Assembly: GCA_032718475.1 (NCBI GenBank)
Contig: JAUCBJ010001989.1
Coordinates: 1 to 64,000 of the forward strand
Source: Nemertoderma westbladi
Lineage: Eukaryota; Animalia; Xenacoelomorpha
DNA: 64,000 nucleotides
Direction of reading: 5' to 3'
Each line of letters opens with the position of its first letter. Within the stretch, counting starts at the first letter, position 1. Shown piece after piece: positions 1 to 30,954 of the stretch. A model generated the notes under the pieces. The model saw only the letters and a list, made by a program, of their open reading frames with translations. It ran no database searches and was not told the origin of the DNA. The translations under genes were made by a program, and so were the position numbers.

Positions 1-3000
1 AGAACTTACACAAAATATGGGACAGTTCCAGGCAACAAACAGAACTTACACAAAATTATCCGGACAGTGTCCAGCCAACAAACAGAACTTACACAAAATA
101 TCGACAGTTCCAGCCAACAAACAGAACTTACACAAAATATCCGACAGTTCCAGCCAACAAACAGAACTTACACAAAATATCCGACAGTTCCAGGCAACAA
201 ACAGAACTTACACAAAATATCCGACAGGTCCAGCCAACAAACAGAACTTACACAAATTATCCGACAGGTCCAGCCAACAAACAGAACTTACACAAAATAT
301 CCGACAATTCCAGCCAACAAACAGAACTTACACAAAATATCCGAGAGTTCCAGCCAACAATCAGAACTTACACAAAATATCCGACAGTTCCAGACAAAAA
401 CAGAACTTACACAAAATATCCGACAGTTCCAGACAAAAAACAGAACTTACACAAAATATGGGACAGTTCCAGGCAACAAACAGAACTTACACAAATTATC
501 CGACAGGTCCAGCCAACAAACAGAACTTACACAAAATATGGGACAGTTCCAGGCAACAAACAGAACTTACACAAATTATCCGACAGGTCCAGCCAACAAA
601 CAGAACTTACACAAATTATCCGACAGGTCCAGCCAACAAACAGAACTTACACAAAATATCCGACAGGTCCAGCCAACAAACAGAACTTACACAAATTATC
701 CGACAGGTCCAGCCAACAAACAGAACTTACACAAAATATCCGACAGTTCCAGCCAACAAACAGAACTTACACAAAATATGGGACAGTTCCAAGCAACAAA
801 CAGAACTTACACAAATTATCCGACAGGTCCAGCCAACAAACAGAACTTACACAAATTATCCGACAGGTCCAGCCAACAAACAGAACTTACACAAAATATC
901 CGACAGTTCCAGCCAACAAACAGAACTTACACAAAATATGGGACAGTTCCAAGCAACAAACAGAACTTACACAAATTATCCGACAGGTCCAGCCAACAAA
1001 CAGAACTTACACAAAATATCCGACACTTCCAGCCAACAAACAAAACTTACACAAAATATCCGACAGGTCCAGCCAACAAACAGAACTTACACAAAATATC
1101 CGACTGTTCCAGCCAACAAACAAAACTTACATAAAATATACGACAGTTCCAAGAACTTACACAAAATATCCGACAGTTCCAGCCAACAAACAAAACTTAC
1201 ACAAAATATCCGACAGTTCCAGCCAACAAACAAAACTTACACAAAATATCCGACAGTTCCAGCCAACAAACAGAACTTACACAAAATATCCCACAGTTCC
1301 AGCCAATAAACATAATTTATACAAAATATCCGACAGTTCCAGCCAACAAACAGAACTTACACAAAATATGGGACAGTTCCAGGCAACAAACAGAACTTAC
1401 ACAAATTATCCGACAGGTCCAGCCAACAAACAGAACTTACACAAAATAACCGACACTTCCAGCCAACAAACAAAACTTACACAAAATATCCGACAGGTCC
1501 AGCCAACAAACAGAACTTACACAAAATATCCGACTGTTCCAGCCAACAAACAAAACTTACATAAAATATACGACAGTTCCAAGAACTTACACAAAATATC
1601 CGACAGTTCCAGCCAACAAACAAAACTTACACAAAATATCCGACAGTTCCAGCCAACAAACAAAACTTACACAAAATATCCGACAGTTCCAGGCAACAAA
1701 CAAAACTTACCCAAAATATCCGACAGTTCCAGCCAACAATCAGATCTTACACAAAAGATCCGACAATTCCAGCCAACAAACAGAACTTACACAAAATATC
1801 CCACAGTTCCAGCCAATAAACATAATTTATACAAAATATCCGACAGTTCCAGCCAACAAACAGAACTTACACAAAATAATGCGACAGTTCCAGTCAACAA
1901 ACAGAACTTACACAAAATATGGGACAGTTCCAGGCAACAAACAGAACTTAGATAAAATATCCGACAGTTCCAGTCAACAAACAGAACTTACACAAAATAT
2001 GGGACAGTTCCAGGCAACAAATAGAACTTACACAAATTATCCGACAGGTCCAGCCAACAAACAGAACTTACACAAAATATGGGACAGTTCCAGCCAACAA
2101 ACAAAACTTACACAAAATATCCGACAGTTCCAGGCAACAAACATAACTTACACAAAATATCCGACAGTTCCAAGCAACAAACAGAACTTACACAAAATAT
2201 CCGACAGTTCCAGCCAACAAACAAAACTTACACAAAATATCCGACAGTTCCAGGCAACAAACAAAACTTACCCAAAACATCCGACAGTTCCAGCCAACAA
2301 ACAGAACTTACACAAAAGATCCGACAGTTCCAGCGATCAATCAGAACTTACACAAACGATCCGACAATTCCAGCCAACAAACATAACTTACACAAAATAT
2401 CCCACAGTTCCAGCCAATAAACATAATTTATACAAAATATCCGACAGTTCCAGCCAATAAACAGAACTTACACAAAATATCCGACAGGTACAGCCAACAA
2501 ACATAATTTATACAAAATATCCGACAGTTCCATCCAACAACAGAACTTACACAAAAGATCCGACAATTCCAGCCAACAAACAGAACTTACACAAAATATC
2601 CGACAGGTACAGCCAACAAACATAATTTATACAAAATATCCGACAATTCGAGCCAACAAACAGAACTTACACAAAATATGCGACAGTTCCAGTCAACAAA
2701 CAGAACTTACACAAAATATGGGACAGTTCCAGGCAACAAACAGAACTTACATAAAATATCCGACAGTTCCAGTCAACAAACAGAACTTACACAAAATATG
2801 GGACAGTTCCAGGCAACAAATAGAACTTACACAAATTATCCGACAGATCCAGCCAACAAACAGAACTTATACAAAGTATGGGACAGTTCCAGCCAACAAA
2901 CAAAACTTACACAAAATATCCGACAGTTCCAGGCAACAAACAGAACTTACACAAAATATCCGACAGTTCCAGGCAACAAACAGAACTTACACAAAATATC

Positions 3001-6000
3001 CGACAGGTACAGCCAACAAACAAAACTTACAAAAAATATCCGACAGTTCCAGCCAACAAACAGAACTTACACAAAATATGGGACAGTTCCAGGCAACAAA
3101 CAGAACTTGCACAAAATATCCAACAGGTCCAGCCAACAAACATAACTTACACAAAATATCCGACAGTTCCAGCCAATAACCAAAACTTACACAAAATATC
3201 CGACAGTTCCAGACAAAAAACAGAACTTACGCAAATTATCCGACACTTCCATCCAACAAACATAACTTAAACAAAGGATTCGACAATTCCAGCCAACAAT
3301 CAGAACTTACACAAAATATCCGACAGTTCCAGACAAAAACAGAACTTACACAAAATATCCGACAGTTCCAGACAAAAAACAGAACTTACACAAAATATCC
3401 GACAGGTACAGCCAACAAATATAATTTATACAAAATATCCAACAGTTCCAGCCAACAAATATAATTTATACAAAATATCCGACAGTTCCATCCAACAACA
3501 GAACTTACACAAAATATCCGACAGGTACAGCCAACAAACATAGTTTATACAAAATATCCGACAGTTCCAGGCAACAAACAGAACTTACACAAAATATCCG
3601 ACAATTCGAGCCAACAAACAGAACTTACACAAAATATCCGACAGCTCCAGCCAACAAACAAAACTTACACAAAATATCCGACAGTTCCAGGCAACAAACA
3701 AAACTTACCCAAAATATCTGACAGATCCAGCTAACAAACAGAACTTACACAAAAGATCCGACAGTTCCAGCCAACAATGAGAACTTACACAAAAGATCCG
3801 ACAATTCCAGCCAACAAACAGAACTTACACAAAATATCCCACAGTTCCAGCCAATAAACATAATTTATAGAAAATATCCGACAGTTACAGCCAACAAACA
3901 GAACTTACACAAAATATGCGACAGTTCCAGTCAACAAACAGAACTTACACACAATATGGGACAGTTCCAGGCAACAAACAGAACTTACACAAAATATGGG
4001 ACAGTTCCAGGCAACAAATACAACTTACACAAATTATCCGACAGGTCCAGCCAACAAACAAATCTTACACAAAATATGGGACAGTTCCAGCCAAAAAACA
4101 AAACTTACACAAAATATCCGACAGTTCCAGGCAACAAACAGAACTTACACAAAATATCCGACAGTACCAGGCAACAAACAGAACTTACACAAAATATCCG
4201 ACAGTTCCAGCCAACAAACAAAACTTACACAAAATATCCGACAGTTCCAGGCAACAAACAAAACTTACCCAAAACATCCGACAGTTCCAGCCAACAAACA
4301 GAACTTACACAAAAGATCCGACAGTTCCAGCCAACAATCAGAACTTACACAAAAGATCCGACAATTCCAGCCAAAAAACAGAACTTACACAAAATATGGG
4401 ACAGTTCCAGGCAACAAACAGAACTTGCACAAAATATCCGACAGGTCCAGCCAACAAACATAACTTACACAAAATATCCGACAGTTCCAGCCAATAACCA
4501 AAACTTACACAAAATATCCGACAGTTTCAGGCAACAAACAGAACTTACACAAAATATGGGACAGTTCCAGGCAACAAATAAAACTTACAAAAAAATTCCG
4601 ACAGTTCCAGACAAAAAACAGAACTTACACAAATCATCCGACACTTCCATCCAACAAACATAACTTAAACAAAAGATTCGACAATTCCAGCCAACAAACA
4701 AAACTTACACAAAATATCCGACAGTTCCAGGCAACAAACAGAACTTACACAAAATATCCGACAGTTCCAGGCAACAAACAGAACTTACACAAAATATCCG
4801 ACAGGTACAGCCAACAAACAAAACTTACAAAAAATATCCGACAGTTCCAGCCAACAAACAGAACTTACACAAAATATGGGACAGTTCCAGGCAACAAACA
4901 GAACTTGCACAAAATATCCAACAGGTCCAGCCAACAAACATAACTTACACAAAATATCCGACAGTTCCTGCCAATAACCAAAACTTACACAAAATATCCG
5001 ACAGTTTCAGGCAACAAACAGAACTTACACAAAATATGGGGCAGTTCCACGCAACAAACAAAACTTACAAAAAATATCCGACAGTTCCAGACAAAAAACA
5101 GAACTTACACAAATTATCCGACACTTCCATCCAACAAACATAACTTAAACAAAGGATTCGACAATTCCAGCCAACAATCAGAACTTACACAAAATATCCG
5201 ACAGTTCCAGACAAAAACAGAACTTACACAAAATATCCGACAGTTCCAGACAAAAAACAGAACTTACACAAAATATCCGACAGGTACAGCCAACAAATAT
5301 AATTTATACAAAATATCCAACAGTTCCAGCCAACAAATATAATTTATACAAAATATCCGACAGTTCCATCCAACAACAGAACTTACACAAAATATCCGAC
5401 AGGTATAGCCAACAAACATAATTTATACAAAATATCCGACAGTTCCAGGCAACAAACAGAACTTACACAAAAGATCCGACAGTTCCAGCCAACAATCAGA
5501 ACTTACACAAAAGATGCGACAATTCCAGCCAACAAACAGAACTTACACAAAATATCCCACAGTTCCAGCCAATAAACATAATTTATAGAAAATATCCGAC
5601 AGTTACAGCCAACAAACAGAACTTACACAAAATATGCGACAGTTCCAGTCAACAAACAGAACTTACACAAAATATGGGACAGTTCCAGGCAACAAACAGA
5701 ACTTACACAAAATATGGGACAGTTCCAGGCAACAAATAGAACTTACACAAATTATCTGACAGGTCCAGCCAACAAACAGAACTTGCACAAAATATGGGAC
5801 AGTTCCAGCCAAAAAACAAAACTTACACAAAATATCCGACAGTTCCAGGCAACAAACAGAACTTACACAAATTATCCGACAGGTCCAGCCAACAAACAGA
5901 ACTTACACAAAATATCCGACAGGTCCAGCCAACAAACAGAACTTACACAAATTATCCGACAGGTCCAGCCAACAAACAGAACTTACACAAAATATCCGAC

Positions 6001-9000
6001 AGTTCCAGCCAACAAACAGAACTTACACAAAATATGGGACAGTTCCAAGCAACAAACAGAACTTACACAAATTATCCGACAGGTCCAGCCAACAAACAGA
6101 ACTTACACAAAATATCCGACAGTTCCAGCCAACAAACAGAACTTACACAAAATATGGGACAGTTCCAAGCAACAAACAGAACTTACACAAATTATCCGAC
6201 AGGTCCAGCCAACAAACAGAACTTACACAAATTATCCGACAGGTCCAGCCAACAAACAGAACTTACACAAAATATCCGACAGTTCCAGCCAACAAACAGA
6301 ACTTACACAAAATATGGGACAGTTCCAAGCAACAAACAGAACTTACACAAATTATCTGACAGGTCCAGCCAACAAACAGAACTTACACAAAATATCCGAC
6401 ACTTCCAGCCAACAAACAAAACTTACACAAAATATCCGACAGGTCCAGCCAACAAACAGAACTTACACAAAATATCCGACTGTTCCAGCCAACAAACAAA
6501 ACTTACATAAAATATACGACAGTTCCAAGAACTTACACAAAATATCCGACAGTTCCAGCCAACAAACAAAACTTACACAAAATATCCGACAGTTCCAGCC
6601 AACAAACAAAACTTACACAAAATATCCGACAGTTCCAGCCAACAAACAGAACTTACACAAAATATCCCACAGTTCCAGCCAATAAACATAATTTATACAA
6701 AATATCCGACAGTTCCAGCCAACAAACAGAACTTACACAAAATATGGGACAGTTCCAGGCAACAAACAGAACTTACACAAATTATCCGACAGGTCCAGCC
6801 AAAAAACAGAACTTACACAAAATAACCGACACTTCCAGCCAACAAACAAAACTTACACAAAATATCCGACAGGTCCAGCCAACAAACAGAACTTACACAA
6901 AATATCCGACTGTTCCAGCCAACAAACAAAACTTACATAAAATATACGACAGTTCCAAGAACTTACACAAAATATCCGACAGTTCCAGCCAACAAACAAA
7001 ACTTACACAAAATATCCGACAGTTCCAGCCAACAAACAAAACTTACACAAAATATCCGACAGTTCCAGGCAACAAACAAAACTTACCCAAAATATCCGAC
7101 AGTTCCAGCCAACAATCAGATCTTACACAAAAGATCCGACAATTCCAGCCAACAAACAGAACTTACACAAAATATCCCACAGTTCCAGCCAATAAACATA
7201 ATTTATACAAAATATCCGACAGTTCCAGCCAACAAACAGAACTTACACAAAATAATGCGACAGTTCCAGTCAACAAACAGAACTTACACAAAATATGGGA
7301 CAGTTCCAGGCAACAAACAGAACTTACATAAAATATCCGACAGTTCCAGTCAACAAACAGAACTTACACAAAATATGGGACAGTTCCAGGCAACAAATAG
7401 AACTTACACAAATTATCCGACAGGTCCAGCCAACAAACAGAACTTACACAAAATATGGGACAGTTCCAGCCAACAAACAAAACTTACACAAAATATCCGA
7501 CAGTTCCAGGCAACAAACATAACTTACACAAAATATCCGACAGTTCCAAGCAACAAACAGAACTTACACAAAATATCCGACAGTTCCAGCCAACAAACAA
7601 AACTTACACAAAATATCCGACAGTTCCAGGCAACAAACAAAACTTACCCAAAACATCCGACAGTTCCAGCCAACAAACAGAACTTACACAAAAGATCCGA
7701 CAGTTCCAGCGATCAATCAGAACTTACACAAACGATCCGACAATTCCAGCCAACAAACATAACTTACACAAAATATCCCACAGTTCCAGCCAATAAACAT
7801 AATTTATACAAAATATCCGACAGTTCCAGCCAATAAACAGAACTTACACAAAATATCCGACAGGTACAGCCAACAAACATAATTTATACAAAATATCCGA
7901 CAGTTCCATCCAACAACAGAACTTACACAAAAGATCCGACAATTCCAGCCAACAAACAGAACTTACACAAAATATCCGACAGGTACAGCCAACAAACATA
8001 ATTTATACAAAATATCCGACAATTCGAGCCAACAAACAGAACTTACACAAAATATGCGACAGTTCCAGTCAACAAACAGAACTTACACAAAATATGGGAC
8101 AGTTCCAGGCAACAAACAGAACTTACATAAAATATCCGACAGTTCCAGTCAACAAACAGAACTTACACAAAATATGGGACAGTTCCAGGCAACAAATAGA
8201 ACTTACACAAATTATCCGACAGATCCAGCCAACAAACAGAACTTACACAAAGTATGGGACAGTTCCAGCCAACAAACAAAACTTACACAAAATATCCGAC
8301 AGTTCCAGGCAACAAACAGAACTTACACAAAATATCCGACAGTTCCAGGCAACAAACAGAACTTACACAAAATATCCGACAGGTACAGCCAACAAACAAA
8401 ACTTACAAAAAATATCCGACAGTTCCAGCCAACAAACAGAACTTACACAAAATATGGGACAGTTCCAGGCAACAAACAGAACTTGCACAAAATATCCAAC
8501 AGGTCCAGCCAACAAACATAACTTACACAAAATATCCGACAGTTCCAGCCAATAACCAAAACTTACACAAAATATCCGACAGTTCCAGACAAAAAACAGA
8601 ACTTACGCAAATTATCCGACACTTCCATCCAACAAACATAACTTAAACAAAGGATTCGACAATTCCAGCCAACAATCAGAACTTACACAAAATATCCGAC
8701 AGTTCCAGACAAAAACAGAACTTACACAAAATATCCGACAGTTCCAGACAAAAAACAGAACTTACACAAAATATCCGACAGGTACAGCCAACAAATATAA
8801 TTTATACAAAATATCCAACAGTTCCAGCCAACAAATATAATTTATACAAAATATCCGACAGTTCCATCCAACAACAGAACTTACACAAAATATCCGACAG
8901 GTACAGCCAACAAACATAGTTTATACAAAATATCCGACAGTTCCAGGCAACAAACAGAACTTACACAAAATATCCGACAATTCGAGCCAACAAACAGAAC

Positions 9001-12000
9001 TTACACAAAATATCCGACAGCTCCAGCCAACAAACAAAACTTACACAAAATATCCGACAGTTCCAGGCAACAAACAAAACTTACCCAAAATATCTGACAG
9101 ATCCAGCTAACAAACAGAACTTACACAAAAGATCCGACAGTTCCAGCCAACAATGAGAACTTACACAAAAGATCCGACAATTCCAGCCAACAAACAGAAC
9201 TTACACAAAATATCCCACAGTTCCAGCCAATAAACATAATTTATAGAAAATATCCGACAGTTACAGCCAACAAACAGAACTTACACAAAATATGCGACAG
9301 TTCCAGTCAACAAACAGAACTTACACACAATATGGGACAGTTCCAGGCAACAAACAGAACTTACACAAAATATGGGACAGTTCCAGGCAACAAATACAAC
9401 TTACACAAATTATCCGACAGGTCCAGCCAACAAACAAAACTTACACAAAATATGGGACAGTTCCAGCCAAAAAACAAAACTTACACAAAATATCCGACAG
9501 TTCCAGGCAACAAACAGAACTTACACAAAATATCCGACAGTTCCAGGCAACAAACAGAACTTACACAAAATATCCGACAGTTCCAGCCAACAAACAAAAC
9601 TTACACAAAATATCCGACAGTTCCAGGCAACAAACAAAACTTACCCAAAACATCCGACAGTTCCAGCCAACAAACAGAACTTACACAAAAGATCCGACAG
9701 TTCCAGCCAACAATCAGAACTTACACAAAATATGCGACAGTTCCAGACAAAAACAGAACTTACACTAAATATCCGACAGTTCCAGCCAACAAACAGAACT
9801 TAAACAAAAGATTCTACAATTCCAGCCAACAAACAGAACTTACACAAAATATCCGACAGTTCCAGCCAATAAACATAATTTATAGAAAATATCCGACAGT
9901 TACAGCCAACAAACAGAACTTACACAAAATATGCGACAGTTCCAGTCAACAAACAGAACTTACACAAAATATGGGACAGTTCCAGGCAACAAACAGAACT
10001 TACACAAAATATGGGACAGTTCCAGGCAACAAATAGAACTTACACAAATTATCTGACAGGTCCAGCCAACAAACAGAACTTGCACAAAATATGGGACAGT
10101 TCCAGCCAAAAAACAAAACTTACACAAAATATCCGACAGTTCCAGGCAACAAACAGAACTTACACAAAATATCCGACAGCTCCAGCCAACTAACAAAACT
10201 TACACAAAATATCCGACAGTTCCAGGCAACAAACAAAACTTACCCAAAATATCTGACAGATCCAGCTAACAAACATAACTTACACAAAAGATCCGACAGT
10301 TCCAGCCAACAATCAGAACTTACACAAAAGATCCGACAATTCCAGCCAACAAACAGAACTTACACAAAAAATCCCACAGTTCCAGCCAATAAACATAATT
10401 TATAGAAAATATCCGACAGTTACAGCCAACAAACAGAACTTACACAAAATATGCGACAGTTCCAGTCAACAAACAGAACTTACACAAAATATGGGACAGT
10501 TCCAGGCAACAAACAGAACTTACACAAAATATGGGACAGTTCCAGGCAACAAATAGAACTTACACAAATTATCCGACAGGTCCAGCCAATAAACATAAAC
10601 TTACACAAAATATGGGACAGTTCCAGCCAAAAGACAAAACTTACACAAAATATCCGACAGTTCCAGGCAACAAACAGAACTTACACAAAATATCCGACAG
10701 TTCCAGCCAACAAACAGAACTTACACAAAATATGGGACAGTTCCAGCCAAAAGACAAAACTTACACAAAATATCCGACAGTTCCAGGCAACAAACAGAAC
10801 TTACATAAAATATCCGACAGTTCCAGGCAACAAACAGAACTTACACAAAATATCCGACAGTTCCAGCCAACAAACAAAAATTACACAAAATATGCGACAG
10901 TTCCAGACAAAAACAGAACTTACACTAAATATCCGACAGTTCCAGCCAACAAACAGAACTTAAACAAAAGATTCTACAATTCCAGCCAACAAACAGAACT
11001 TACACAAAATATCCGACAGTTCCAGCCAACAAACAGAACTTACATAAAATATCCGACAGGTCCAGGCAACAAACAGAACTTAAACAAAATATCCGACAGT
11101 CCCAGCCAACAAATAGAACTTCACAAAATATGCGACAGTTCCAGCCAACAAACAGAACTTACATAAAATATCCGACAGGTCCAGGCAACAATCAGAACTT
11201 ACACAAAATTTCCGACAGTTCCAGCCAACAAACAGAACTTACATAAAATATCCGACAGTTCCAGCCAACAAACATAACTTACATAAAATATCCGACAGGT
11301 CCAGGCAACAAACAGAACATACACAAAATATCCGACAGTTCCAGACAAAAACAGAACTTACACTAAATATCCGACAGGTCCAGGCAACAATCAGAACTTA
11401 CACAAAATTTCCGACAGTTCCAGCCAACAAACAGAACTTACATAAAATATCCGACAGTTCCAGCCAACAAACGGAACTTACACAAAATATCCGACAGTTC
11501 CAGCCAACAAACAGAACTTACATAAAATATCCGACAGTTCCAGCCAACAAACGGAACTTACACAAAATATCCGACAGTTCCAGCCAACAAACAGAACTTA
11601 CATAAAATATCCGACAGTTCCAGCCAACAAACGGAACTTACACAAAATATCCGACAGTTCCAGCCAACAAACAGAACTTACATAAAATATCCGACAGGTC
11701 CAGGCAACAATCAGAACTTACACAAAATTTCCGACAGTTCCAGCCAACAAACAGAACTTACATAAAATATCCGACAGTTCCAGCCAACAAACATAACTTA
11801 CATAAAATATCCGACAGGTCCAGGCAACAAACAGAACATACACAAAATATCCGACAGTTCCAGACAAAAACAGAACTTACATAAAATATCCGACAGTTCC
11901 AGCCAACAAACATAACTTACATAAAATATCCGACAGGTCCAGGCAACAAACAGAACATACACAAAATTTCCGACAGTTCCAGCCAACAAACAGAACTTAC

Positions 12001-15000
12001 ATAAAATATCCGACAGTTCCAGCCAACAAACGGAACTTACATAAAATATCCGACAGGTCCAGGCAACAATCAGAACTTACACAAAATTTCCGACAGGTCC
12101 AGGCAACAATCAGAACTTACACAAAATTTCCGACAGTTCCAGCCAACAAACAGAACTTACATAAAATATCCGACAGTTCCAGCCAACAAACAGAACTTAC
12201 ATAAAATATCCGACAGTTCCAGCCAACAAACGGAACTTACACAAAATATCCGACAGTTCCAGACAAAAACAGAACTTACACTAAATATCCGACAGGTCCA
12301 GGCAACAATCAGAACTTACACAAAATTTCCGACAGTTCCAGCCAACAAACAGAACTTACATAAAATATCCGACAGTTCCAGCCAACAAACGGAACTTACA
12401 CAAAATATCCGACAGTTCCAGCCAACAAACAGAACTTACATAAAATATCCGACAGTTCCAGCCAACAAACGGAACTTACACAAAATATCCGACAGTTCCA
12501 GCCAACAAACAGAACTTACATAAAATATCCGACAGTTCCAGCCAACAAACGGAACTTACACAAAATATCCGACAGTTCCAGCCAACAAACAGAACTTACA
12601 TAAAATATCCGACAGGTCCAGGCAACAATCAGAACTTACACAAAATTTCCGACAGTTCCAGCCAACAAACAGAACTTACATAAAATATCCGACAGTTCCA
12701 GCCAACAAACATAACTTACATAAAATATCCGACAGGTCCAGGCAACAAACAGAACATACACAAAATATCCGACAGTTCCAGACAAAAACAGAACTTACAT
12801 AAAATATCCGACAGTTCCAGCCAACAAACATAACTTACATAAAATATCCGACAGGTCCAGGCAACAAACAGAACATACACAAAATTTCCGACAGTTCCAG
12901 CCAACAAACAGAACTTACATAAAATATCCGACAGTTCCAGCCAACAAACGGAACTTACACAAAATATCCGACAGTTCCAGCCAACAAACAGAACTTACAT
13001 AAAATATCCGACAGGTCCAGGCAACAATCAGAACTTACACAAAATTTCCGACAGTTCCAGCCAACAAACAGAACTTACATAAAATATCCGACAGTCCCAG
13101 CCAACAAACATAACTTACATAAAATATCCGACAGGTCCAGGCAACAAACAGAACATACACAAAATATCCGACAGTTCCAGACAAAAACAGAACTTACACT
13201 AAATATCCGACAGTTCCAGCCAACAAACAGAACTTAATCAAAAGATTCTACAATTCCAGCCAACAAACAGAACTTACACAAAATATCCGACAGTTCCAGC
13301 CAACAAACAAAACTTACACAAAATATGCGACAGTTCCAGACAAAAACAGAACTTACACTAAATATCCGACAGTTCCAGCCAACAAACAGAACTTAAACAA
13401 AAGATTCTACAATTCCAGCCAACAAACAGAACTTACACAAAAGATCCGACAATTCCAGCCAAAAAACAGAACTTACACAAAATATGGGACAGTTCCAGGC
13501 AACAAACAGAACTTGCACAAAATATCCGACAGGTCCAGCCAACAAACATAACTTACACAAAATATCCGACAGTTCCAGCCAATAACCAAAACTTACACAA
13601 AATATCCGACAGTTTCAGGCAACAAACAGAACTTACACAAAATATGGGACAGTTCCAGGCAACAAATAAAACTTACAAAAAATTTCCGACAGTTCCAGAC
13701 AAAAAACAGAACTTACACAAATTATCCGACACTTCCATCCAACAAACATAACTTAAACAAAAGATTCGACAATTCCAGCCAACAAACAGAACTTACACAA
13801 AATATCCGACAGTTCCAGACAAAAAAACAGAACTTACACAAAATATCCGACAGGTCCAGGCAACAAACAGAACTTACACAAAATATGCGACAGTTCCAGG
13901 CAACAAATAGTACTAACACAAAATATCCGACAGTTCCAGACAAAAAACAGAACTTAAACAAAAGATTCGACAATTCCAGCCAACAAACGGAACTTACACA
14001 AAATATCCGACAGTTCCAGCCAACAATCAGAACTTACACAAAATATCCGACAGTTCCAGACACAAAAAACAGAACTTACACAAAATATCCGACAGTTCCA
14101 GCCAACAATCAGAACTTACACAAAATATCCGACAATTCGAGCCAACAAACAGAACATACACAAAATATCCCACAGTTCCAGACAAAAACAGAACTTACAC
14201 TAAATATCCGACAGTTCCAGCCAACAAACAGAACTTAAACAAAAGATTCTACAATTCCAGCCAACAATCAGAACTTACACAAAATATCCGACAGTTCCAG
14301 ACAAAAAACAGAACTTAAACAAAATATCCGACAGTTCCAGGCAACAAATAGAACTTACACAAATTATCCGACAGGTCCAGCCAACAATCAGAACTTACAC
14401 AAAATATCCGACAGTTCCAGCCAACAAACAGAACTTAAACAAAAGATTCTACAATTCCAGCCAACAAACAGAACTTACACAAAATATCCGACAGTTCCAG
14501 CCAACAAACAAAACTTACACAAAATATGCGACAGTTCCAGACAAAAACAGAACTTACACTAAATATCCGACAGTTCCAGCCAACAAACAGAACTTAAACA
14601 AAAGATTCTACAATTCCAGCCAACAAACAGAACTTACACAAAATATCCGACAGTTCCAGCCAACAAACAGAACTTACATAAAATATCCGACAGGTCCAGG
14701 CAACAAACAGAACTTAAACAAAATATCCGACAGTCCCAGCCAACAAATAGAACTTCACAAAATATGCGACAGTTCCAGCCAACAAACAGAACTTACATAA
14801 AATATCCGACAGGTCCAGGCAACAATCAGAACTTACACAAAATATCCGACAGTTCCAGCCAACAAACAGAACTTACATAAAATATCCGACAGTTCCAGCC
14901 AACAAACATAACTTATATAAAATATCCGACAGGTCCAGCCAACAATCAGAACTTACACAAAATATCCGACAGTTCCAGACAAAAACAGAACTTACACTAA

Positions 15001-18000
15001 ATATCCGACAGTTCCAGCCAACAAACAGAACTTAAACAAAAGATTCTACAATTCCAGCCAACAAACAGAACTTACACAAAATATCCGACAGTTCCAGCCA
15101 ACAAACAAAACTTACACAAAATATGCGACAGTTCCAGACAAAAACAGAACTTACACTAAATATCCGACAGTTCCAGCCAACAAACAGAACTTAAACAAAA
15201 GATTCTACAATTCCAGCCAACAAACAGAACTTACACAAAATATCCGACAGTTCCAGCCAACAAACAGAACTTACATAAAATATCCGACAGGTCCAGGCAA
15301 CAAACAGAACTTAAACAAAATATCCGACAGTCCCAGCCAACAAATAGAACTTCACAAAATATGCGACAGTTCCAGCCAACAAACAGAACTTACATAAAAT
15401 ATCCGACAGGTCCAGGCAACAACCAGAACTTACACAAAATATCCGACAGTTCCAGCCAACAAACAGAACTTACATAAAATATCCGACAGTTCCAGGCAAC
15501 AACCAGAACTTACACAAAATATCCGACAGTTCCAGCCAACAAACATAACTTACATAAAATATCCGACAGGTTCAGGCAACAAACAGAACTTACACAAAAT
15601 ATCCGACAGTTCCAGCCAACAAACATAACTTACATAAAATATCCGACAGGTCCAGGCAACAACCAGAACTTACACAAAATATCCGACAGTTCCAGCCAAC
15701 AAACATAACTTACATAAAATATCCGACAGGTCCAGGCAACAAACAGAACTTACACAAAATATCCGACAGTTCCAGCCAACAAACATAACTTACATAAAAT
15801 ATCCGACAGGTCCAGGCAACAAACAGAACTTACACAAAATATCCGACAGTTCCAGCCAACAAACATAACTTACATAAAATATCCGACAGGTCCAGGCAAC
15901 AACCAGAACTTACACAAAATATCCGACAGTTCCAGCCAACAAACATAACTTACATAAAATATCCGACAGGTCCAGGCAACAAACAGAACATACACAAAAT
16001 ATCCGACAGTTCCAGACAAAAACAGAACTTACACTAAATATCCGACAGTTCCAGCCAACAAACAGAACTTAAACAAAAGATTCTACAATTCCAGCCAACA
16101 AACAGAACTTACACAAAATATCCGACAGTTCCAGCCAACAAACAAAACTTACACAAAATATGCGACAGTTCCAGACAAAAACAGAACTTACACTAAATAT
16201 CCGACAGTTCCAGCCAACAAACAGAACTTAAACAAAAGATTCTACAATTCCAGCCAACAAACAGAACTTACACAAAATATCCGACAGTTCCAGCCAACAA
16301 ACAGAACTTACATAAAATATCCGACAGGTCCAGGCAACAAACAGAACTTAAACAAAATATCCGACAGGTCCAGGCAACAAATAGAACTTCACAAAATATG
16401 CGACAGTTCCAGCCAACAAACAGAACTTACATAAAATATCCGACAGTTCCAGCCAACAAACATAACTTACACAAAATATCCGACAGTTCCAGCCAACAAA
16501 CATAACTTACATAAAATATCCGACAGGTCCAGGCAACAAACAGAACTTACACAAAATATCCGACAGTTCCAGGCAACAAATAGAACTTCACAAAATATGC
16601 GACAGTTCCAGCCAACAAATAGAACTTACACAAAATATCCGACAGTTCCAGACAAAAAAACAGAACTTAAACAAAAGATTCGACAATTCCAGCCAACAAA
16701 CAAAACTTACACAAAATATGCGACAGTTCCAGACAAAAACAGAACTTACACTAAATATCCGACAGTTCCAGCCAACAAACAGAACTTAAACAAAAGATTC
16801 TACAATTCCAGCCAACAAACAGAACTTACATAAAATATCCGACAGTTCCAGCCAACAAACATAACTTACATAAAATATCCGACAGGTCCAGGCAACAAAC
16901 AGAACTTACACAAAATATCCGACAGTTCCAGGCAACAAATAGAACTTCACAAAATATGCGACAGTTCCAGCCAACAAATAGAACTTACACAAAATATCCG
17001 ACAGTTCCAGACAAAAAAACAGAACTTAAACAAAAGATTCGACAATTCCAGCCAACAAACGGAACTTACACAAAATATCCGACAGTTCCAGCCAACAATC
17101 AGAACTTACACAAAATATCCGACAGTTCCAGACAAAAAACAGAACTTACACAAAATATCCGACAGGTCCAGGCAACAAACAGAACTTACACAAAATATGC
17201 GACAGTTCCAGGCAACAAATAGTACTAACACAAAATATCCGACAGTTCCAGCCAACAAATAGAACTTACACAAAATATCCGACAGTCCAGACAAAAAACA
17301 GAACTTACACAAAATATCCGACAGTTCCAGCCAACAAATAGAACTTACACAAAATATCCGACAGTTCCAACCAACAAATAGAACTTACACAAAATATCCG
17401 ACAGTTCCAGCCAACAATAAGAACTTACACAAAATATCCGACAGTCCCAGCCAACAATAAGAACTTACACAAAATATCCGACAGTTCCAGCCAACAAATA
17501 GAACTTATACAAAATATCCGACAGTCCAGACAAAAAAACAGAACTTACACAAAATATCCGACAGTTCCAGCCAACAAATAGAACTTACACAAAATATCCG
17601 ACAGTTCCAGGCAACAAATAGTACTTACACAAAATATCCGACAGTCCCAGCAAACAAATAGAACTTACACAAAATATCCGACAGTTCCAGGCAACAAATA
17701 AAACTTACACAAAATATCCGACAGTTCCAGGCAACAAATAGTACTTACACAAAATATCCGACAGTTCCAGACAAAAAACAGAACTTAAACAAAATATCCG
17801 ACAGTTCCAGGCAACAAATAGAACTTACACAAATTATCGGACAGGTCCAGCCAACAATCAGAACTTACACAAAATATCCGACAATTCGAGCCAACAAACA
17901 GAACATACACAAAATATCCGACAGTTCCAGACAAAAACAGAACTTACACTAAATATCCGACAGTTCCAGCCAACAAACAGAACTTAAACAAGAGATTCTA

Positions 18001-21000
18001 CAATTCCAGCCAACAAACAGAACTTACACAAAATATCCGACAGTTCCAGCCAACAAACAAAACTTACACAAAATATGCGACAGTTCCAGACAAAAACAGA
18101 ACTTACACTAAATATCCGACAGTTCCAGCCAACAAACAGAACTTAAACAAAAGATTCTACAATTCCAGCCAACAAACAGAACTTACACAAAATATCCGAC
18201 AGTTCCAGCCAACAAACAGAACTTACATAAAATATCCGACAGGTCCAGGCAACAAACAGAACTTAAACAAAATATCCGACAGTCCCAGCCAACAAATAGA
18301 ACTTCACAAAATATGCGACAGTTCCAGCCAACAAACAGAACTTACATAAAATATCCGACAGGTCCAGGCAACAATCAGAACTTACACAAAATATCCGACA
18401 GTTCCAGCCAACAAACAGAACTTACACAAAATATCCGACAGTTCCAGACAAAAACAGAACTTACACTAAATATCCGACAGTTCCAGCCAACAAACAGAAC
18501 TTAAACAAAAGATTCTACAATTCCAGCCAACAAACAGAACTTACACAAAATATCCGACAGTTCCAGCCAACAAACAAAACTTACACAAAATATGCGACAG
18601 TTCCAGACAAAAACAGAACTTACACTAAATATCCGACAGTTCCAGCCAACAAAAAGAACTTAAACAAAAGATTCTACAATTCCAGCCAACAAACAGAACT
18701 TACACAAAATATCCGACAGTTCCAGCCAACAAACAGAACTTACATAAAATATCCGACAGTTCCAGCCAACAAACAGAACTTACATAAAATATCCGACAGG
18801 TCCAGGCAACAATCAGAACTTACACAAAATATCCGACAGTTCCAGCCAACAAACAGAACTTACATAAAATATCCGACAGTTCCAGCCAACAAACATAACT
18901 TACATAAAATATCCGACAGGTCCAGGCAACAAACAGAACTTACACAAAATATCCGACAGTTCCAGGCAACAAATAGAACTTCACAAAATATGCGACAGTT
19001 CCAGCCAACAAATAGAACTTACACAAAATATCCGACAGTTCCAGACAAAAAAACAGAACTTAAACAAAAGATTCGACAATTCCAGCCAACAAACGGAACT
19101 TACACAAAATATCCGACAGTTCCAGCCAACAATCAGAACTTACACAAAATATCCGACAGTTCCAGACAAAAAACAGAACTTACACAAAATATCCGACAGG
19201 TCCAGGCAACAAACAGAACTTACACAAAATATGCGACAGTTCCAGGCAACAAATAGTACTAACACAAAATATCCGACAGTTCCAGACAAAAAAACAGAAC
19301 TTAAACAAAAGATTCGACAATTCCAGCCAACAAACGGAACTTACACAAAATATCCGACAGTTCCAGCCAACAATCAGAACTTACACAAAATATCCGACAA
19401 TTCCAGACAAAAAAACAGAACTTACACAAAATATCCGACAGTTCCAGCCAACAATCAGAACTTACACAAAATATCCGACAATTCGAGCCAACAAACAGAA
19501 CATACACAAAATATCCCACAGTTCCAGACAAAAACAGAACTTACACTAAATATCCGACAGTTCCAGCCAACAAACAGAACTTAAACAAAAGATTCTACAA
19601 TTCCAGCCAACAATCAGAACTTACACAAAATATCCGACAGTTCCAGACAAAAAACAGAACTTAAACAAAATATCTGACAGTTCCAGGCAACAAATAGAAC
19701 TTACACAAATTATCCGACAGGTCCAGCCAACAATCAGAACTTACACAAAATATCCGACAGTTCGAGACAAAAAAACAGAACTTACACAAAATATCCGACA
19801 ATTCCAGCCAACAAACAGAACTTACACAAAATATCCGGCAGGTACAGCCAACAAACAAAATTTATACAAAATTTACGAAAACTGGTGCGCGCCCTGGTCA
19901 CTGGAGGTATCATAGCTTCAAATCTTTAAGGTGTGTGTAAACTGGATCTTTTACTAGTGACCGTGTATATAATTAATTTCAGTTATATTGCGGCCAACAG
20001 GCCTTTAACGAACTGATAGGTACCTACCTACAAAGTGCAGTTGGCAGTCTGTATAGTAGTGAGTTTTGTAGGTAGGTACCTATCAGTCCGTTAAAGGCCT
20101 GTTGGCCGCAATATAACTGAAATTAATTATATACACGGTCACTAGTAAAAGATCCAGTTTACACACACCTTAAAGATTTGAAGCTATAATTTATACAAAA
20201 TATCCGACAGTTCCAGGCAACAAACAGAACTTACACAAAAGATCCAACAGTTCCAGCCAACAAATATAATTTATACAAAATATCCGACAGTTCCATCCAA
20301 CAACAGAACTTACACAAAAGATCCGACAATTCCAGCCAACAAACAAAACTTACACAAAATATCCGACAGTTCCATCCAACAACAGAACTTACACAAAAGA
20401 TCCGACAATTCCAGCCAACAAACAGAACTTACACAAAATATCCGACAGGTACAGCCAACAAACATAATTTATACAAAATATCCGACAGTTCCAGCCAACA
20501 AATATAATTTATACAAAATATCCGACAGTTCCATCCAACAACAGAACTTACACAAAAGATCCGACAATTCAGGCCAACAAACAGAACTTACACAAAATAT
20601 CCGACAATTCCAGCCAACAAACAGAACTTACACAAAATATCCGGCAGGTAAAGCCAACAAACATAATTTATACAAAATATCCGACAATTCGAGCCAACAA
20701 ACAGAACTTACACAAAATATTCGACAGTTCCAGCCAACAAACAAAACTTACACAAAATATCCGACAGTTCCAGGCAACAAACAGAACTTACACAAAATAT
20801 CCGGCAGGTAAAGCCAACAAACATAATTTATACAAAATATCCGACAATTCGAGCCAACAAACAGAACTTACACAAAATATCCAACAGTTCCAGCCAACAA
20901 ATATAATTTATACAAAATATCCGACAGTTCCATCCAACAACAGAACTTACACAAAAGATCCGACAATTCCAGCCAACAAACAAAACTTACACAAAATATC

Positions 21001-24000
21001 CGACAGTTCCATCCAACAACAGAACTTACACAAAAGATCCGACAATTCCAGCCAACAAACAGAACTTACACAAAATATCCGACAGGTACAGCCAACAAAC
21101 ATAATTTATACAAAATATCCGACAGTTCCAGCCAACAAATATAATTTATACAAAATATCCGACAGTTCCATCCAACAACAGAACTTACACAAAAGATCCG
21201 ACAATTCAGGCCAACAAACAGAACTTACACAAAATATCCGACAATTCCAGCCAACAAACAGAACTTACACAAAATATCCGGCAGGTAAAGCCAACAAACA
21301 TAATTTATACAAAATATCCGACAATTCGAGCCAACAAACAGAACTTACACAAAATATTCGACAGTTCCAGCCAACAAACAAAACTTACACAAAATATCCG
21401 ACAGTTCCAGGCAACAAACAAAACTTACCCAAAATATCTGACAGTTCCAGCCAACAAACAGAACTTACACAAAAGATCCGACAGTTCCAGCCAACAATCA
21501 GAACTTACACAAAAGATCCGACAATTCCAGCCAACAAACAGAACTTACACAAAATATCCCACAGTTCCAGCCAATAAACATAATTTATAGAAAATATCCG
21601 ACAGTTCCAGCCAACAAACAGAACTTACACAAAATATGCGACAGTTCCAGTCAACAAACAGAACTTACACAAAATATGGGACAGTTCCAGGCAACAAACA
21701 GAACTTACACAAAATATGGGACAGTTCCAGCCAAAAAACAAAACTTACACAAAATATCCGACAGTTCCAGGCAACAAACAAAACTTACCCAAAACATCCG
21801 ACAGTTCCAGCCAACAAGCAGAACTTACACAAGAGATCCGTCAGTTCCAGCCAACAATCAGAACTTACACAAAAGATCCGACAATTCCAGCCAACAAACA
21901 GAACTTACACAAAATATGGGACAGTTCCAGGCAACAAACAAAACTTACCCAAAACATCCGACAGTTCCAGCCAACAAACAGAACTTACACAAAAGATCCG
22001 TCAGTTCCAGCCAACAATCAGAACTTACACAAAATATCCGACAATTCGAGCCAACAAACAGAACATACACAAAATATCCGACAGCTCCAGACAAAAACAG
22101 AACTTACACTAAATATCCGACAGTTCCAGCCAACAAACAGAACTTACATAAAATATCCGACAGGTCCAGGCAACAAACAGAACTTACACAAAATATCCGA
22201 CAGGTCCAGCCAACAAACAGAACTTACACAAAATATCCGACAGTTCCAGCCAACAAACAAAACTTACACAAAATATTCGACAGTTCCAGGCAACAAATAG
22301 AACTAACACATAATATCCGACAGTTCCAGGCAACAAATAGAACTTCACAAAATATGCGACAGTTCCAGCCAACAAATAGAACTTACACAAAATATCCGAC
22401 AGTTCCAGGCAACAAATAGAACTAACACAAAATATCCGACAGTTCCAGGCAACAAATAGAACTTCACAAAATATGCGACAGTTCCAGCCAACAAATAGAA
22501 CTTACACAAAATATCCGACAGTTCCAGGCAACAAACAGAACTTAAACAAAAGATTCGACAATTCCAGCCAACAAACGGAACTTACACAAAATATCCGACA
22601 GTTCCAGCCAAAAATCAGAACTTACACAAAATATCCGACAGTTCCAGACAAAAAAACAGAACTTACACAAAATATCCGACAGTTCCAGCCAACAATCAGG
22701 ACTTACACAAAATATCCGACAATTCGAGCCAACAAACAGAACATACACAAAATATCCGACAGTTCCAGACAAAAACAGAACTTACACTAAATATCCGACA
22801 GTTCCAGCCAACAAACAGAACTTAAACAAAAGATTCTACAATTCCAGCCAACAAACGGAACTTACACAAAATATCCGACAGTTCCAGCCAACAATCAGAA
22901 CTTACACAAAATATCCGACAGTTCCAGACAAAAAAACAGAACTTACACAAAATATCCGACAGTTCCAGCCAACAATCAGAACTTACACAAAATATCCGAC
23001 AATTCGAGCCAACAAACAGAACATACACAAAATATCCGACAGTTCCAGACAAAAACAGAACTTACACTAAATATCCGACAGTTCCAGCCAACAAACATAA
23101 CTTAAACAAAAGATTCTACAATTCCAGCCAACAAACAGAACTTACACAAAATATCCGACAGTTCCAGCCAACAATCAGAACTTAAACCAAATATCCGACA
23201 GTCTAGATAAAAAACAGAACTTACACAAAATATCCGACAGTTCCAGCCAACAATCAGAACTTACACAAAATATCCGACAGTTCCAGCCAACAAATATAAT
23301 TTATACAAAATATCCGACAGTTCCATCCAACAACAGAACTTACACAAAATATCCGACAGTTCCAGTCAACAATCAGAACTTACACAAAATATCCGACAGT
23401 CCAGATAAAAAACAGAACTTACATAAAAGATCTGACAATTCCAGCCAACAATCAGAACTTACACAAAATATCCGACAGTTCCAGCCAAAAACATAATTTA
23501 TACAAAATATGCGACAGTTCCAGCCAACAGATATAACTTACATAGCATATCCGACAATTCCAGCCAATATACATAAACTTACACAAAATATCCGACAGTT
23601 CCAGCCAACAAATAGGACTTACACAAAATATGCGACAGTTCCAGACAGCAGATATAACTTACATAGCATATCCGACACTTCACGCCAATAAACATAAACT
23701 TACACAAAATATCCGACAGTTCCAGCCAACATATAGGACTTACACAAAATATCCGACAGTTCCAGCCAATAAACATAAACTTACACAAAATCGACAGTTA
23801 CAGGCAACAAATAGAACTTACACAAAATATCCGACAGTCCAGACAATAAACATAAACTGACACAAAATATCCGACAGTCCAGACAAAACAACAGAACTTA
23901 CACAAAATATCCCACAGTTCCAGGCAACAAATATAACTTACACAAAATATCCAACAGTTCCAGGCAACAAATAGGACTTACACAAAATATCCGACAGTCC

Positions 24001-25774
24001 CAGCCAATAAACATAAACTTACACAAAATCGACAGTTCCAGGCAACAAATAGGACTTCCACAAATTATCCGACGGTTCCAGGCAACATATAGAACTTACA
24101 CAAAATATCCGACAGTTCCAGGCAATAAACATAAACTTACACAAAATCGACAGTTACAGGCAACAAATAGAACTTACACAAAATATCCGACAGTCCAGAC
24201 AAAAAAACAGAACTTACACAAAATATCCCACAGTTCCAGGCAACAAATAGAACTTACACAAAATATCCGACAGTTCCAGCCAACAATAAGAACTTGCACA
24301 AAATATCCGACAGTTCCAGCCAACAATAAGAACTTACACAAAATATCCGACAGTCCCAGCCAACAATAAGAACTTACACAAAATATCCGACAGTTCCAGC
24401 CAACAAATAGAACTTACACAAAATATCCGACAGTCCAGACAAAAAAAACAGAACTTACACAAAATATCCGACAGTTCCAGCCAACAAATAGAACTTACAC
24501 AAAATATCCGACAGTTCCAACCAACAAATAGAACTTACACAAAATATCCGACAGTTCCAGCCAACAATAAGAACTTACACAAAATATCCGACAGTCCCAG
24601 CCAACAATAAGAACTTACACAAAATATCCGACAGTTCCAGCCAACAATAAGAACTTACACAAAATATCCGACAGTTCCAGCCAACAATAAGAACTTACAC
24701 AAAATATCAGACAGTTCCAGCCAACAAATAGAACTTACACAAAATATCCGACAGTCCCAGCCAACAAATAGAACTTACACAAAATATCCGACAGTCCCAG
24801 CCAACAATAAGAACTTACACAAAATATCCGACAGTCCCAGCCAACAATAAGAACTTACACAAAATATCCGACAGTCCCAGCCAACAAATAGAACTTACAC
24901 AAAATATCCGACAGTCCCAGCCAACAATAAGAACTTACACAAAATATCCGACAGTTCCAGCCAACGATAAGTACTTACACAAAATATCCGACAGTTCCAG
25001 CCAACAATAAGAACTTACACAAAATATCCGACAGTCCCAGGCAACAATAAGAAGTTACACAAAATATCCGACAGTTCCAGCCAACAAATAGAACTTACAC
25101 AAAATATCCGACAGTCCAGACAAAAAACAGAACTTACACAAAATATCCGACAGTTCCAGCCAACAAATAGAACTTACACAAAATATCCGACAGTTCCAAC
25201 CAACAAATAGAACTTACACAAAATATCCGACAGTTCCAGCCAACAATAAGAACTTACACAAAATATCCGACAGTCCCAGCCAACAATAAGAACTTACACA
25301 AAATATCCGACAGTTCCAGCCAACAAATAGAACTTACACAAAATATCCGACAGTCCAGACAAAAAAACAGAACTTACACAAAATATCCGACAGTTCCAGC
25401 CAACAAATAGAACTTACACAAAATATCCGACAGTTCCAGGCAACAAATAGTACTTACACAAAATATCCGACAGTCCCAGCAAACAAATAGAACTTACACA
25501 AAATATCCGACAGTTCCAGGCAACAAATAGAACTTACACAAAATATCCGACAGTTCCAGGCAACAAATAGTACTTACACAAAATATCCGACAGTCCCAGC
25601 AAACAAATAGAACTTACACAAAATATCCGACAGTTCCAGGCAACAAATAGGACTTACACAAAATATCCGACAGTCCCAGCCAACAAATAGGACTTACACA
25701 AAATATCCGACAGTTCCAGCAAACAAATAGAACTTACACAAAATATCCGACAGTCCCAGCTAACAACCGACAGT
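1..25774. repeat. 40-bp tandem satellite array (consensus CAGAACTTACACAAAATATCCGACAGTTCCAGCCAACAAA), about 635 units, running off the left edge of the window
   Basis: The 40-bp period is directly visible. Units are contiguous with point variants (e.g. ATGGGAC, CAGGCAAC, CATAAAA, AATAG) and occasional 39-, 41- or 30-bp units. The + strand is strongly A/C-rich. The array ends at ...CCGACAGT 25774. Confidence 0.99.
19873..20187. mobile_element. Foldback/MITE-like insert in the satellite: 123-bp inverted arms (19912-20034 / 20065-20187) around a 30-bp spacer, plus 39 unpaired bp on the left
   Basis: The arms are reverse complements with one mismatch (20011/20088). The insert is flanked by a 14-bp direct repeat AATTTATACAAAAT (19859-19872 and 20188-20201), which is itself satellite sequence. 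Confidence 0.8.
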
Positions 25775-25878
25775 ATTTGTCTCGGTCCGTAATCTTCCGA
25801 TAATCAATAATTGTGGCTTCAGCAGTAAATATATTGCGGAAATTAATTCGTAACAAAGCAATCTTTGAATCGATCAAA
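25734..25878 (-). CDS. Giant cadherin-like gene, exon 18 in window (C-terminal part of 7th MAD-like domain); 3' boundary ambiguous, abuts the satellite
   Basis: Strong acceptor TTTAATTTCTTCTGTTTTATAG, phase 2, matching the previous exon. Translates SLIDSKIALLRINFRNIFTAEATIIDYRKITDRDKYC. Candidate donors lie after 25768, 25765 or 25738 (GTAAGT); otherwise TAA at 25736-25734. Confidence 0.75.
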
Positions 25879-26908
25879 CTATAAAACAGAAGAAATTAAA
25901 AATATTAATTTAAATATAAATATAAATATAGAGGGCGGTGCACTCGATTTTCGAATTTTGATATATTTTTAAAAATGACCCAATAAAAATTTAAAAAATT
26001 TAAAAAATAATATACTTTTTGCGCCAATACACATATATATTTTTGAACAAAAATGCATACATTAGGTCCTATCTTAGATATTTGTATCTCCGCAAAATCA
26101 ATTAAACAATTAATGACAATTAAATGCTTTCTGCGTCAAATAAATTTCAACCCTTTCGCACGTAATTCAAGATTCTATGTGCTCCCCCAAAAACATAAAG
26201 TAAAATCACATATATCTAAAGTCTGTCGGTCTTTCTGTCAGTTTGTCTGTCAAGACTTAAGAAGAATAAAATCTACTATCGTTTGGGGGTTTTAAGGGTT
26301 TGTAATTTCATTTCTGATGTCAGTTTTCACGTTTACATAAATCTTGTCTGTCTGTCTGTCGGTCTGTCTGTCAGTCTGTACTACTGTACAACTTGGTTGG
26401 CATTACGCCATATACCTAACACTAATAATACTGTCTACAAAGTGCAGAAGTAGTAGAACGACATCCAGACTCGATAATACCTACTGTAACATTTGCCTAA
26501 ATGCGCTAAAAACAGCAATATAGTAATAGTTAAGCACATAATATGATCTACAAACCCATAGAGTTAAATACAAACCCGTGACGCATACGCCGGCGTCATA
26601 GTGCATATGGTGGAGACGCATATACGCCTGTATCATAGGTCCGAACGGTTAAAGTATGGTTAGAAAGTACTAGCAGTAATTAAATTTACCGGTAAGTTGT
26701 TGGGTAAGTTAAACTAATAATGATATCATTACTAATTGGGATCCCAAGAAAAGATTGCTCCATTTCCTATAGCTCCTACTGTCTCAAAGTAAATCTCAAT
26801 AAAAAAAACGGCGTCATAAATCTCAAAATATGCAATAAGTTCAGTGTACTATTTATTATACTTACAGTATATATTACAATATTAGATTATCTTTAATGAG
26901 TCGCAAAC

Positions 26909-27079
26909 CTCTTTATTTGAGCATCAGAAATGAGTGAATATTGATCGTTATTATTTACAATGAATATGGCGATAGTCAATGTGGAAGACACCGGTGTGGC
27001 ATATTGGCATTCAAATATTCGAGTTTCTATACGTTCCACATTCACAATGTATTCTGTACCGAAAGCCAATTCCAAAGTC
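26909..27079 (-). CDS. Giant cadherin-like gene, exon 17 (MAD-like domain)
   Basis: Acceptor TTTTCTATTCCTAG, donor AG|GTTTGC, phase 2-2. Translates TLELAFGTEYIVNVERIETRIFECQYATPVSSTLTIAIF. Confidence 0.8.
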
Positions 27080-27214
27080 CTAGGAATAGAAAAAAAGGGG
27101 CGAATAAAAACAAAGTATATTTAATTTATTATTTTATATTTATTCATTCAATATTATATTCCTCATTGTAATTAAATATATTATTGGCGACTACCTATAC
27201 TACTAGCAACATAC

Positions 27215-27491
27215 CTTTCTATTTCGAATCGTTTTTGGTAGGAATCAATAGGAGCGATGTTGGTATGTATTAGTATACTGGTACTATCTCCACTAAGACC
27301 AACCACAACCTGGGCGGGTTCACTTTCTTTGCCCGTATCATCAGTGGCCACTGCTTCTATGACATATACTGCACCCTCGTCACTGCTTTGGAACGCTTTC
27401 ACATTTCTTATCAACCCAGTTTCATACATAATTTCAAATGGTGCTGTATTTGGGTTGTTTAGAGTGTAGAATATATTATTTGCTCGGGGCA
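27215..27491 (-). CDS. Giant cadherin-like gene, exon 16 (cadherin domain end plus MAD start)
   Basis: Acceptor TTTTATCTTCTTAG, donor AG|GTATGT, phase 1-2. ETGLIRNVKAF...VATDDTGKESEPAQVVVGL...HTNIAP resembles the PCDH15 EC11-MAD12 junction (recalled pattern VIATDDYGKG..ADVLVSVVN...SNVPP). Confidence 0.88.
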
Positions 27492-27755
27492 CTAAGAAGA
27501 TAAAATGTAGTATTAGACAAAATATTCTAATAAACTACATATACGTTCGCAGAACACTTTATACATGTCGTTTGTAGGCTCTATCTATATCTTACTGTAT
27601 TTTGCCCAGATTATAATAATTTTGTTGGTAGGCTTAGGGTATTTCGAGCGCCATATTCATTTATCAATCAATCCATATAAATTGAAATATTTGAAATTAA
27701 CTTTAAAACTATTTAGTTCAGTTTATATGAATAACACAATACATGGTTCGATGCA

Positions 27756-28586: not shown

Positions 28587-28696
28587 GGTACTGTCAGTAG
28601 TAACCTAAATAATACCCTAGACAATGATTTTTCGTCAATAGACTCACCCCACCCCCCCCCCCCCCCCCCCGTATTAGAATTGTGTTTCTTACTCAC

Positions 28697-28858
28697 CCAA
28701 CAAATCAGAATCAACCGCTGATAAACGGATTACGCTGCTGTAGGCTGGCGACATTATCTGCATGGAACCAACGTAGGGAATATTTTCAGCTGGAAATACT
28801 GGCGGTGCGTCATCCACATTGGTAACTATGACAACCAATTGAGCGACATCGCGTACCA
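28697..28858 (-). CDS. Giant cadherin-like gene, exon 15 (cadherin linker; not in the supplied ORF track)
   Basis: Acceptor TTTTATTCCCATCAG, donor G|GTGAGT, phase 1-1. Translates VVRDVAQLVVIVTNVDDAPPVFP...LSAVDSD, with DxxDxxPxF and AxDxD cadherin motifs. Confidence 0.9.
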
Positions 28859-30720: not shown

Positions 30721-30954
30721 TTTAAGTGTGATTTATGATATGTACTTCATGCAAATAGATACATATTTTTCTTGGGGTCTGGACAAATTTTAATTAATTT
30801 CGTTTTATATCAGTTTTATAGCTTGAATAATAATGTATTTGTAACCAAGTAACATAAAGGACCCCCTTGGAAATAAGCTGCAAATATTTAGAGGTAATCC
30901 TATAGGTTATGTTGGACAGACAATAGCTACTGTATATACATTGTTTGGTGTATT

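Follow-up and report, generated by a model that had tools for sequence, protein, structure and literature searches.

Why should an exon run without a break into at least 25.7 kb of tandem repeat, most of whose units carry a perfect splice donor, and which of these donors does the gene use? The question is raised by a stretch of 64,000 nt (the window) from the xenacoelomorph Nemertoderma westbladi (assembly GCA_032718475.1, contig JAUCBJ010001989.1, positions 1 to 64,000), in which the minus strand carries what its predicted domains mark as a cadherin-like gene; this is also the sense strand of the array. The answer argued for here, which we consider probable, is that the array is a donor-spanning minisatellite of which only the first donor is used, the other copies being removed within one very long intron, and that it has no selected function.

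The array occupies positions 1–25766 (minus strand), where a 40-bp unit recurs 646.0 times, with 87% matches, according to Tandem Repeats Finder. It is still present at window position 1; it is thus open at its left edge, and its size is a lower bound. When parsed in register, it divides into 638 units, of which 545 are exactly 40 nt long, plus one insertion of 324 nt. The unit consists of 29 nt of exon end followed by 11 nt of intron start, and elsewhere in the window it has no match longer than 13 nt. An earlier, sequence-only reading of this DNA had reported a sense-strand GTAAGT in most units, and donor-like variants in others, and the counts bear it out: the array's minus strand has 515 GTAAGT, in 515 of the 638 parsed units, its plus strand has 0, and positions +1 to +6 of the 545 exact 40-nt units read GTAAGT in 437, GTATGT in 12 and GCAAGT in 8. 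The density on the sense strand is 20 per kb, versus 0.37 per kb in the gene's other introns. The chance of a GTAAGT in a shuffled unit is 1.7%; the copies in the array count as one event, not 515. The same reading had found no YAG acceptor in the unit, which is true of the consensus but not of the variants: these contain 23 CAG and 57 TAG (80 YAG), with a pyrimidine-rich 20 nt upstream at one of the 79 sites counted. In 21 variant units TTTAG precedes GTAAGT with one base between them, close to a ratchet site but out by that base; this is probably chance. The plus strand of the array has open frames of up to 650 codons, because the unit is stop-free.

The splice junction itself comes from sequencing runs, of which there were six; four (X1–X4) hold the stretch, all were used as assembled contigs, and none is on record as RNA. 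We infer that X4 is RNA, since its contigs skip introns at predicted boundaries. X4 record 24 joins 26909–27078 to 25878–25738 and continues with 187 nt that do not match 25650–32810. In the region 25650–25892, both of the two matching X4 contigs end at 25738, leaving the genome there exactly; the donor used is therefore the first copy of GTAAGT (25732–25737, minus strand), not the sites after 25768 or 25765. All three positions had been listed as candidate donors by the sequence-only reading, which drew the exon end at ...GACAAATACTGTCGG; the spliced contig passes over 25768 and 25765, and the real end lies 30 nt further, at 25738. As defined by the X4 spliced contig, its AG/GT ends and its open frame, the last exon in the window (25738–25878, minus strand) is 141 nt long and in phase 2 at both ends. 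Whether its earlier label, exon 18, is correct turns on a doubtful 42-nt exon: among the candidate exons of the window it comes 18th or 19th.

There is indeed no spacer between exon and array, as had been claimed; the array overlaps the exon's last 29 nt. The first, or founder, unit (25727–25766, minus strand, from parsing and the X4 splice point) spans the real exon-intron boundary, and its donor is repeated in the units that follow. It departs from the array consensus at one intron base and at two codon positions, where the changes are silent. That both coding differences are silent (2 of 2, where 21 of 81 possible changes would be) is too few to count; consensus and founder unit encode the same peptide, LLAGTVGYF.

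Past the splice point, the 30-letter loose end common to both X4 contigs (agreement 0.93) reads V-Q-A-T-V-S-E-L-A-T in frame, by hand translation, and a motif from this peptide was absent from all six frames of the window. With its downstream sequence not in the window, the gene continues outside it, most simply beyond the array. The array had been placed within a giant intron; this stands for the 5′ end, where the splice point falls inside unit 1, while the acceptor would lie outside the window. Reading through the junction meets an in-frame TAA in the first unit (25734–25736, minus strand), as had been predicted, with a product ending ...LLAGTVGYFV; any later donor reaches the same stop. A truncated form of this kind had been put forward as the product of a switch, but no read-through or later-donor contig was seen among the assembled contigs of X4: its depth over 25650–25730, about three array units, was zero, and none of its contigs matched the units tested, which bears on the plus-strand frames as well.

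An array-free sister copy and the origin of the array

A sister copy of the exon, with 11–12 differences in 80–86 nt (~86% identical), was found in all four runs X1–X4. The sister contig in X4 has 11 differences over 25738–25817 and an identical splice point. In the DNA runs X1, X2, and X3, which represent two samples, the sister's match extends across the donor as far as 25732, and the six donor bases differ at about one position at most (counted from totals). Beyond 25732 the sister runs for 143 (X1), 523 (X2), and 109 (X3) nt into sequence that does not match the repeat; the 30 letters seen of the X3 flank are non-repeat. Summed depths suggest that it also matches part of the exon at 27215–27322. 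The sister may be a second gene, a module further along this gene, or a divergent allele; the ~86% identity, together with the 3 nt by which the two X4 contigs differ in length, favors a duplicate.

The proposal that the array arose by amplification of an exon-intron junction is upheld by these results: the splice point lies inside unit 1, and the sister has the same junction with no array, which fits amplification at this site. It might instead be supposed that the assembly attached to the exon, through the shared 29 bases, a satellite that belongs elsewhere; in keeping with this, none of the DNA contigs listed spans exon and array with 31 letters on each side. The unit, however, is made of the exon's own end plus its used donor, and in X2 the contig of this exon stops at 25737, where the repeat begins. 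Among the DNA contigs matching the junction (98, 419, and 107), the shares running into unlike sequence were 0, 0, and 0.01, and the sister copy was the only long unique flank among the loose ends listed; the far flank of the array and the flanks of its insertion also did not appear, which leaves the loose-end test a weak one for other loci. The unit's summed depth peaked at 27,644 in X1 and 39,868 in X2, against single-copy values of ~28 and 20, or ~1000–2000 times single-copy (the X3 ratio is lower and noisier), the order expected for one such array; summed depths are not copy numbers, and only the order was taken from them, about a thousand copies. For comparison, a fragment of a long interspersed nuclear element (LINE) had a summed depth of 1.1 million in X1. 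An assembly artefact is extremely improbable. The array is at least 25.7 kb long, and the rough depth suggests tens of kb.

Within the array, 674–4062 is repeated at +5376 (674–9438 in all) with 4 mismatches in 3389 bp, a higher-order duplication, and shorter exact repeats are numerous at other offsets. Over the 2 kb beside the exon, units have a similarity to unit 1 of 0.92, versus 0.83–0.88 for the rest. The 324-nt insertion (19859–20182), delimited by parsing, is mostly one long palindrome, near-perfect, with arms of ~120 nt, a 30-nt spacer and a tail of ~40 nt. From this structure it is likely a foldback element or one resembling a miniature inverted-repeat transposable element (MITE); Rfam had no match at 19500–26000. 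Such features would reflect ordinary tandem-array turnover; the 5.4-kb repeat may be a collapsed or duplicated assembly block.

An array that began here could nonetheless have been kept for a chromosomal or timing role, as a heterochromatin block or a delay to transcription. Its satellite scale and higher-order duplication are in line with this, as are the giant satellite introns described in Drosophila Y genes (PMC11207136). The 25.7 kb seen is far under those megabase cases, however, and the sister copy does without an array, making a role of this kind highly improbable.

Function or tolerated by-product

In the reading preferred here, of a minisatellite without a selected function, a first tandem duplication across the exon-intron junction would have been followed by growth through slippage and unequal crossing-over (compare the recent 5.4-kb block duplication and the mobile-element-like insertion). 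The first donor would owe its advantage to position, as in human F7: it lies closest to the upstream acceptor and is the first to be transcribed. One possible route is that U1 small nuclear ribonucleoprotein (U1) stays on the first donor while tethered to RNA polymerase II (Pol II; PMC8316553). Use of any later donor would include the in-frame TAA, and the product would likely be cleared by nonsense-mediated decay. With such products likely decayed, the array would be cheap to carry, and it is likely a tolerated by-product.

Several points weigh against this reading. The transcript evidence comes from one run and from assembled contigs, the RNA nature of that run being deduced from its spliced joins; minor use of later donors could go unseen, since assembled contigs lose rare forms and the products would be masked by decay. 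In the human genes 6-16 and CBS, the next two donor copies are reported to be used as well (PMC1557585). The sequence seen contains neither the acceptor nor the array's far end, and removal of the whole array in one intron is extrapolated from its 5′ end. TATAAA, a weaker polyadenylation hexamer, occurs 38 times in the array, a rate similar to that in the other introns. The donor bases tend to vary slightly less than others (0.046 versus 0.078 in base-matched columns), although not significantly: p is 0.105 over all units and 0.074 on the 166 distinct units (a range of 0.07–0.11), and these values are rough, as the columns share ancestry. Finally, the first donor is predicted to be less accessible than 98% of 511 later copies (opening cost 7.8 kcal/mol, versus a mean of 3.7), so structure does not explain its preference.

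A structural mechanism for silencing the later donors was considered on its own account. Each unit can fold, by prediction, a weak hairpin over +4 to +9, but masking of the later donors by it was rejected: the used donor is the less open one, and the consensus fold does not stand out clearly from shuffled sequences, 72 of 1000 of which were as stable. The rarity among units of double changes that keep a hairpin pair also counts against it. Recursive (ratchet) splicing would call for an AG with a GT donor immediately after it, and the array has 0 AGGTAAG and 4 AGGT.

Control that depends on the length of the array, its hundreds of donors loading U1 or diverting transcripts to a premature stop and so setting output relative to the array-free sister, is unlikely. 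One version is a leak-and-decay rheostat or truncation switch, in which some transcripts would reach the TAA, by read-through or by splicing from a later donor, and so be degraded or give the short form ending LLAGTVGYFV, with array length tuning the dose. Every later donor does carry the in-frame TAA, and the later copies are predicted to be at least as accessible as the first. The use of later copies in 6-16 and CBS (PMC1557585) would fit, as would the read-through forms with premature stops reported for expansions of ABCA7's variable number tandem repeat (VNTR; PMC13747324). On the other hand, no X4 contig falls on the units tested and the exon contig is unbroken through the junction; the array offers no canonical polyadenylation hexamer for a truncated mRNA; and the sister copy, which lacks an array, is both expressed and spliced. 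This version is accordingly rated as quite unlikely.

The other version concerns U1 alone. U1 shields transcripts from premature ending, and hundreds of donors might load it on the nascent RNA and prevent early termination in a long intron. The contrast in GTAAGT density between array and other introns and the slight trend in donor conservation would agree with this, and U1, tethered to Pol II, is described as pairing with cryptic as well as real 5′ sites (PMC8316553). The array is, however, the only reason that the intron is long, and its 25,737 nt contain 0 AATAAA and 0 ATTAAA, set against 28 AATAAA and 19 ATTAAA in the other introns of the gene (16,433 nt). At G+1, 14% of the 545 units carry a change, more than at 8 of the 11 other G columns of the unit, which places G+1 among the less conserved of these, and the strand bias of GTAAGT follows from the array's origin alone. 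The suggestion of the sequence-only reading that the array shields the long intron from premature polyadenylation thus finds no support, with neither hexamer there to shield and the donor bases not significantly better conserved, and a U1-loading function is very unlikely.

The host gene

Exon 26909–27079 (minus strand) is joined directly to 25878 in X4 record 24; its weak donor, GTTTGC at 26903–26908 (minus), is backed by the spliced contig. A candidate exon at ~26790–26690 (minus; the exon-like stretch, with plausible splice signals, is 26690–26800) was rejected, its frame being broken and record 24 skipping it. X4 record 25 joins five exons with cadherin-domain sequence (32618–32434, 32267–32040, 29779–29568, 28858–28697, and 27491–27215; together 27215–32618, minus strand), extending from 32619 to 27235, and its junction with record 24 would follow from the lengths of the two records. 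The last seven exons together give 458 open codons. Pfam Cadherin matches lie at 29536–29796, covering exon 29779–29568, and in a large open frame further upstream; exon 27491–27215 falls near Atlas cadherin clusters (score 0.90).

That frame, of 5861 codons (45651–63233, minus strand; open reading frame list and Pfam), has cadherin domains and internal repeats and, judged from its sequence, is likely an upstream exon of the same gene, which otherwise shows a run of short exons bounded by AG and GT. It spans 17.6 kb, apparently as a single exon, and holds ~30 copies of a 133-amino-acid cysteine- and threonine-rich repeat, in two 399-bp arrays, as well as a duplicated block of cadherin domains. 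BLASTP with the host protein returned 49 generic cadherins with best identities of 22–38% and no close relative. A protein search with the last exon (46 amino acids, among longer proteins) gave three candidates, none of them scoring.

The other introns in the window measure ~0.1–3.9 kb, making the array-filled intron at least six times the largest. A second intronic array (32818–33148, 29 bp × 11.4, 99% matches) begins a few bases past the donor at 33155, which it does not include. Fragments of a non-long-terminal-repeat retrotransposon lie in introns in the gene's sense direction (27815–28417, 41036–41452, and 42016–43215, minus strand), with an RVT_1 match at 42019–43215 and a very high summed depth at 27800–28500 in the DNA runs.

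Known donor-spanning repeats

The closest parallels described are human. In F7, 6-16, CBS, LMNB2, and PDGF, as here, the first unit spans the exon-intron boundary and the donor is repeated along the intron (PMC1557585). The copies reported are 5–9 in F7, 25 extra sites in 6-16, 15–20 in CBS (IVS13), 10–15 in LMNB2, and 16–18 in PDGF (intron 4) (PMC1557585). In these cases too the most upstream donor is used, in F7, LMNB2, and PDGF reportedly that donor only; for the 37-bp VNTR of F7 intron 7, mutagenesis indicated that the later donor copies are functional but unused (PMC1557585). The differences are of scale and composition: 5–25 copies in the human cases, versus at least ~640 here, with a higher-order duplication and an inserted element; and an exon share of 4 of 37 nt in the F7 unit, versus 29 of 40 nt here, where a perfect GTAAGT is repeated (PMC1557585). 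More generally, a survey of human genes attributes 27 intron modifications to repeats lying at exon-intron boundaries (PMC2812944).

Among invertebrates, the “mirage” minisatellites of the lancelet Adh3, globin, and PGBD5 genes are likewise tandem copies of exon-intron boundaries, and are reported there not to disturb splicing (PMC3087553, PMC3902484). Their concerted evolution, with divergent edge units, is a further likeness; the globin and PGBD5 examples have 3–6 units, however, and some mirages, unlike the array here, copy acceptors (PMC3087553, PMC3902484).

Size is matched more nearly by the VNTR of ABCA7 intron 18, which is large (12–440 copies), lies hard against a donor as here, and is described as giving read-through with premature stops (PMC13747324). 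It is reported to be adjacent to its donor, has a ~25-bp unit and reaches at most ~11 kb (computed from copies × unit) (PMC13747324). The unit here, unlike that of ABCA7, contains the donor and the exon end, and no read-through form was seen. The satellites of Drosophila Y introns are simple repeats and are not known to derive from exons. They resemble the present case in that an intron is lengthened by tandem repeats, but the genes concerned exceed 4 Mb (PMC11207136), compared with the 25.7 kb seen here. The literature searched, which included few subscription journals, yielded no donor-containing array of such size, and no record is claimed.

With its array-free sister in the same genome, this locus offers a natural test of position-based choice of 5′ splice sites, and of the effect, if any, that hundreds of spare U1 sites have. 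Set beside the systems above, it is of a kind already known, the donor-spanning minisatellite, with roughly 15–25 times more copies than the donor-spanning examples compared; such a minisatellite can reach at least 640 copies while its gene still yields correctly spliced sequence.

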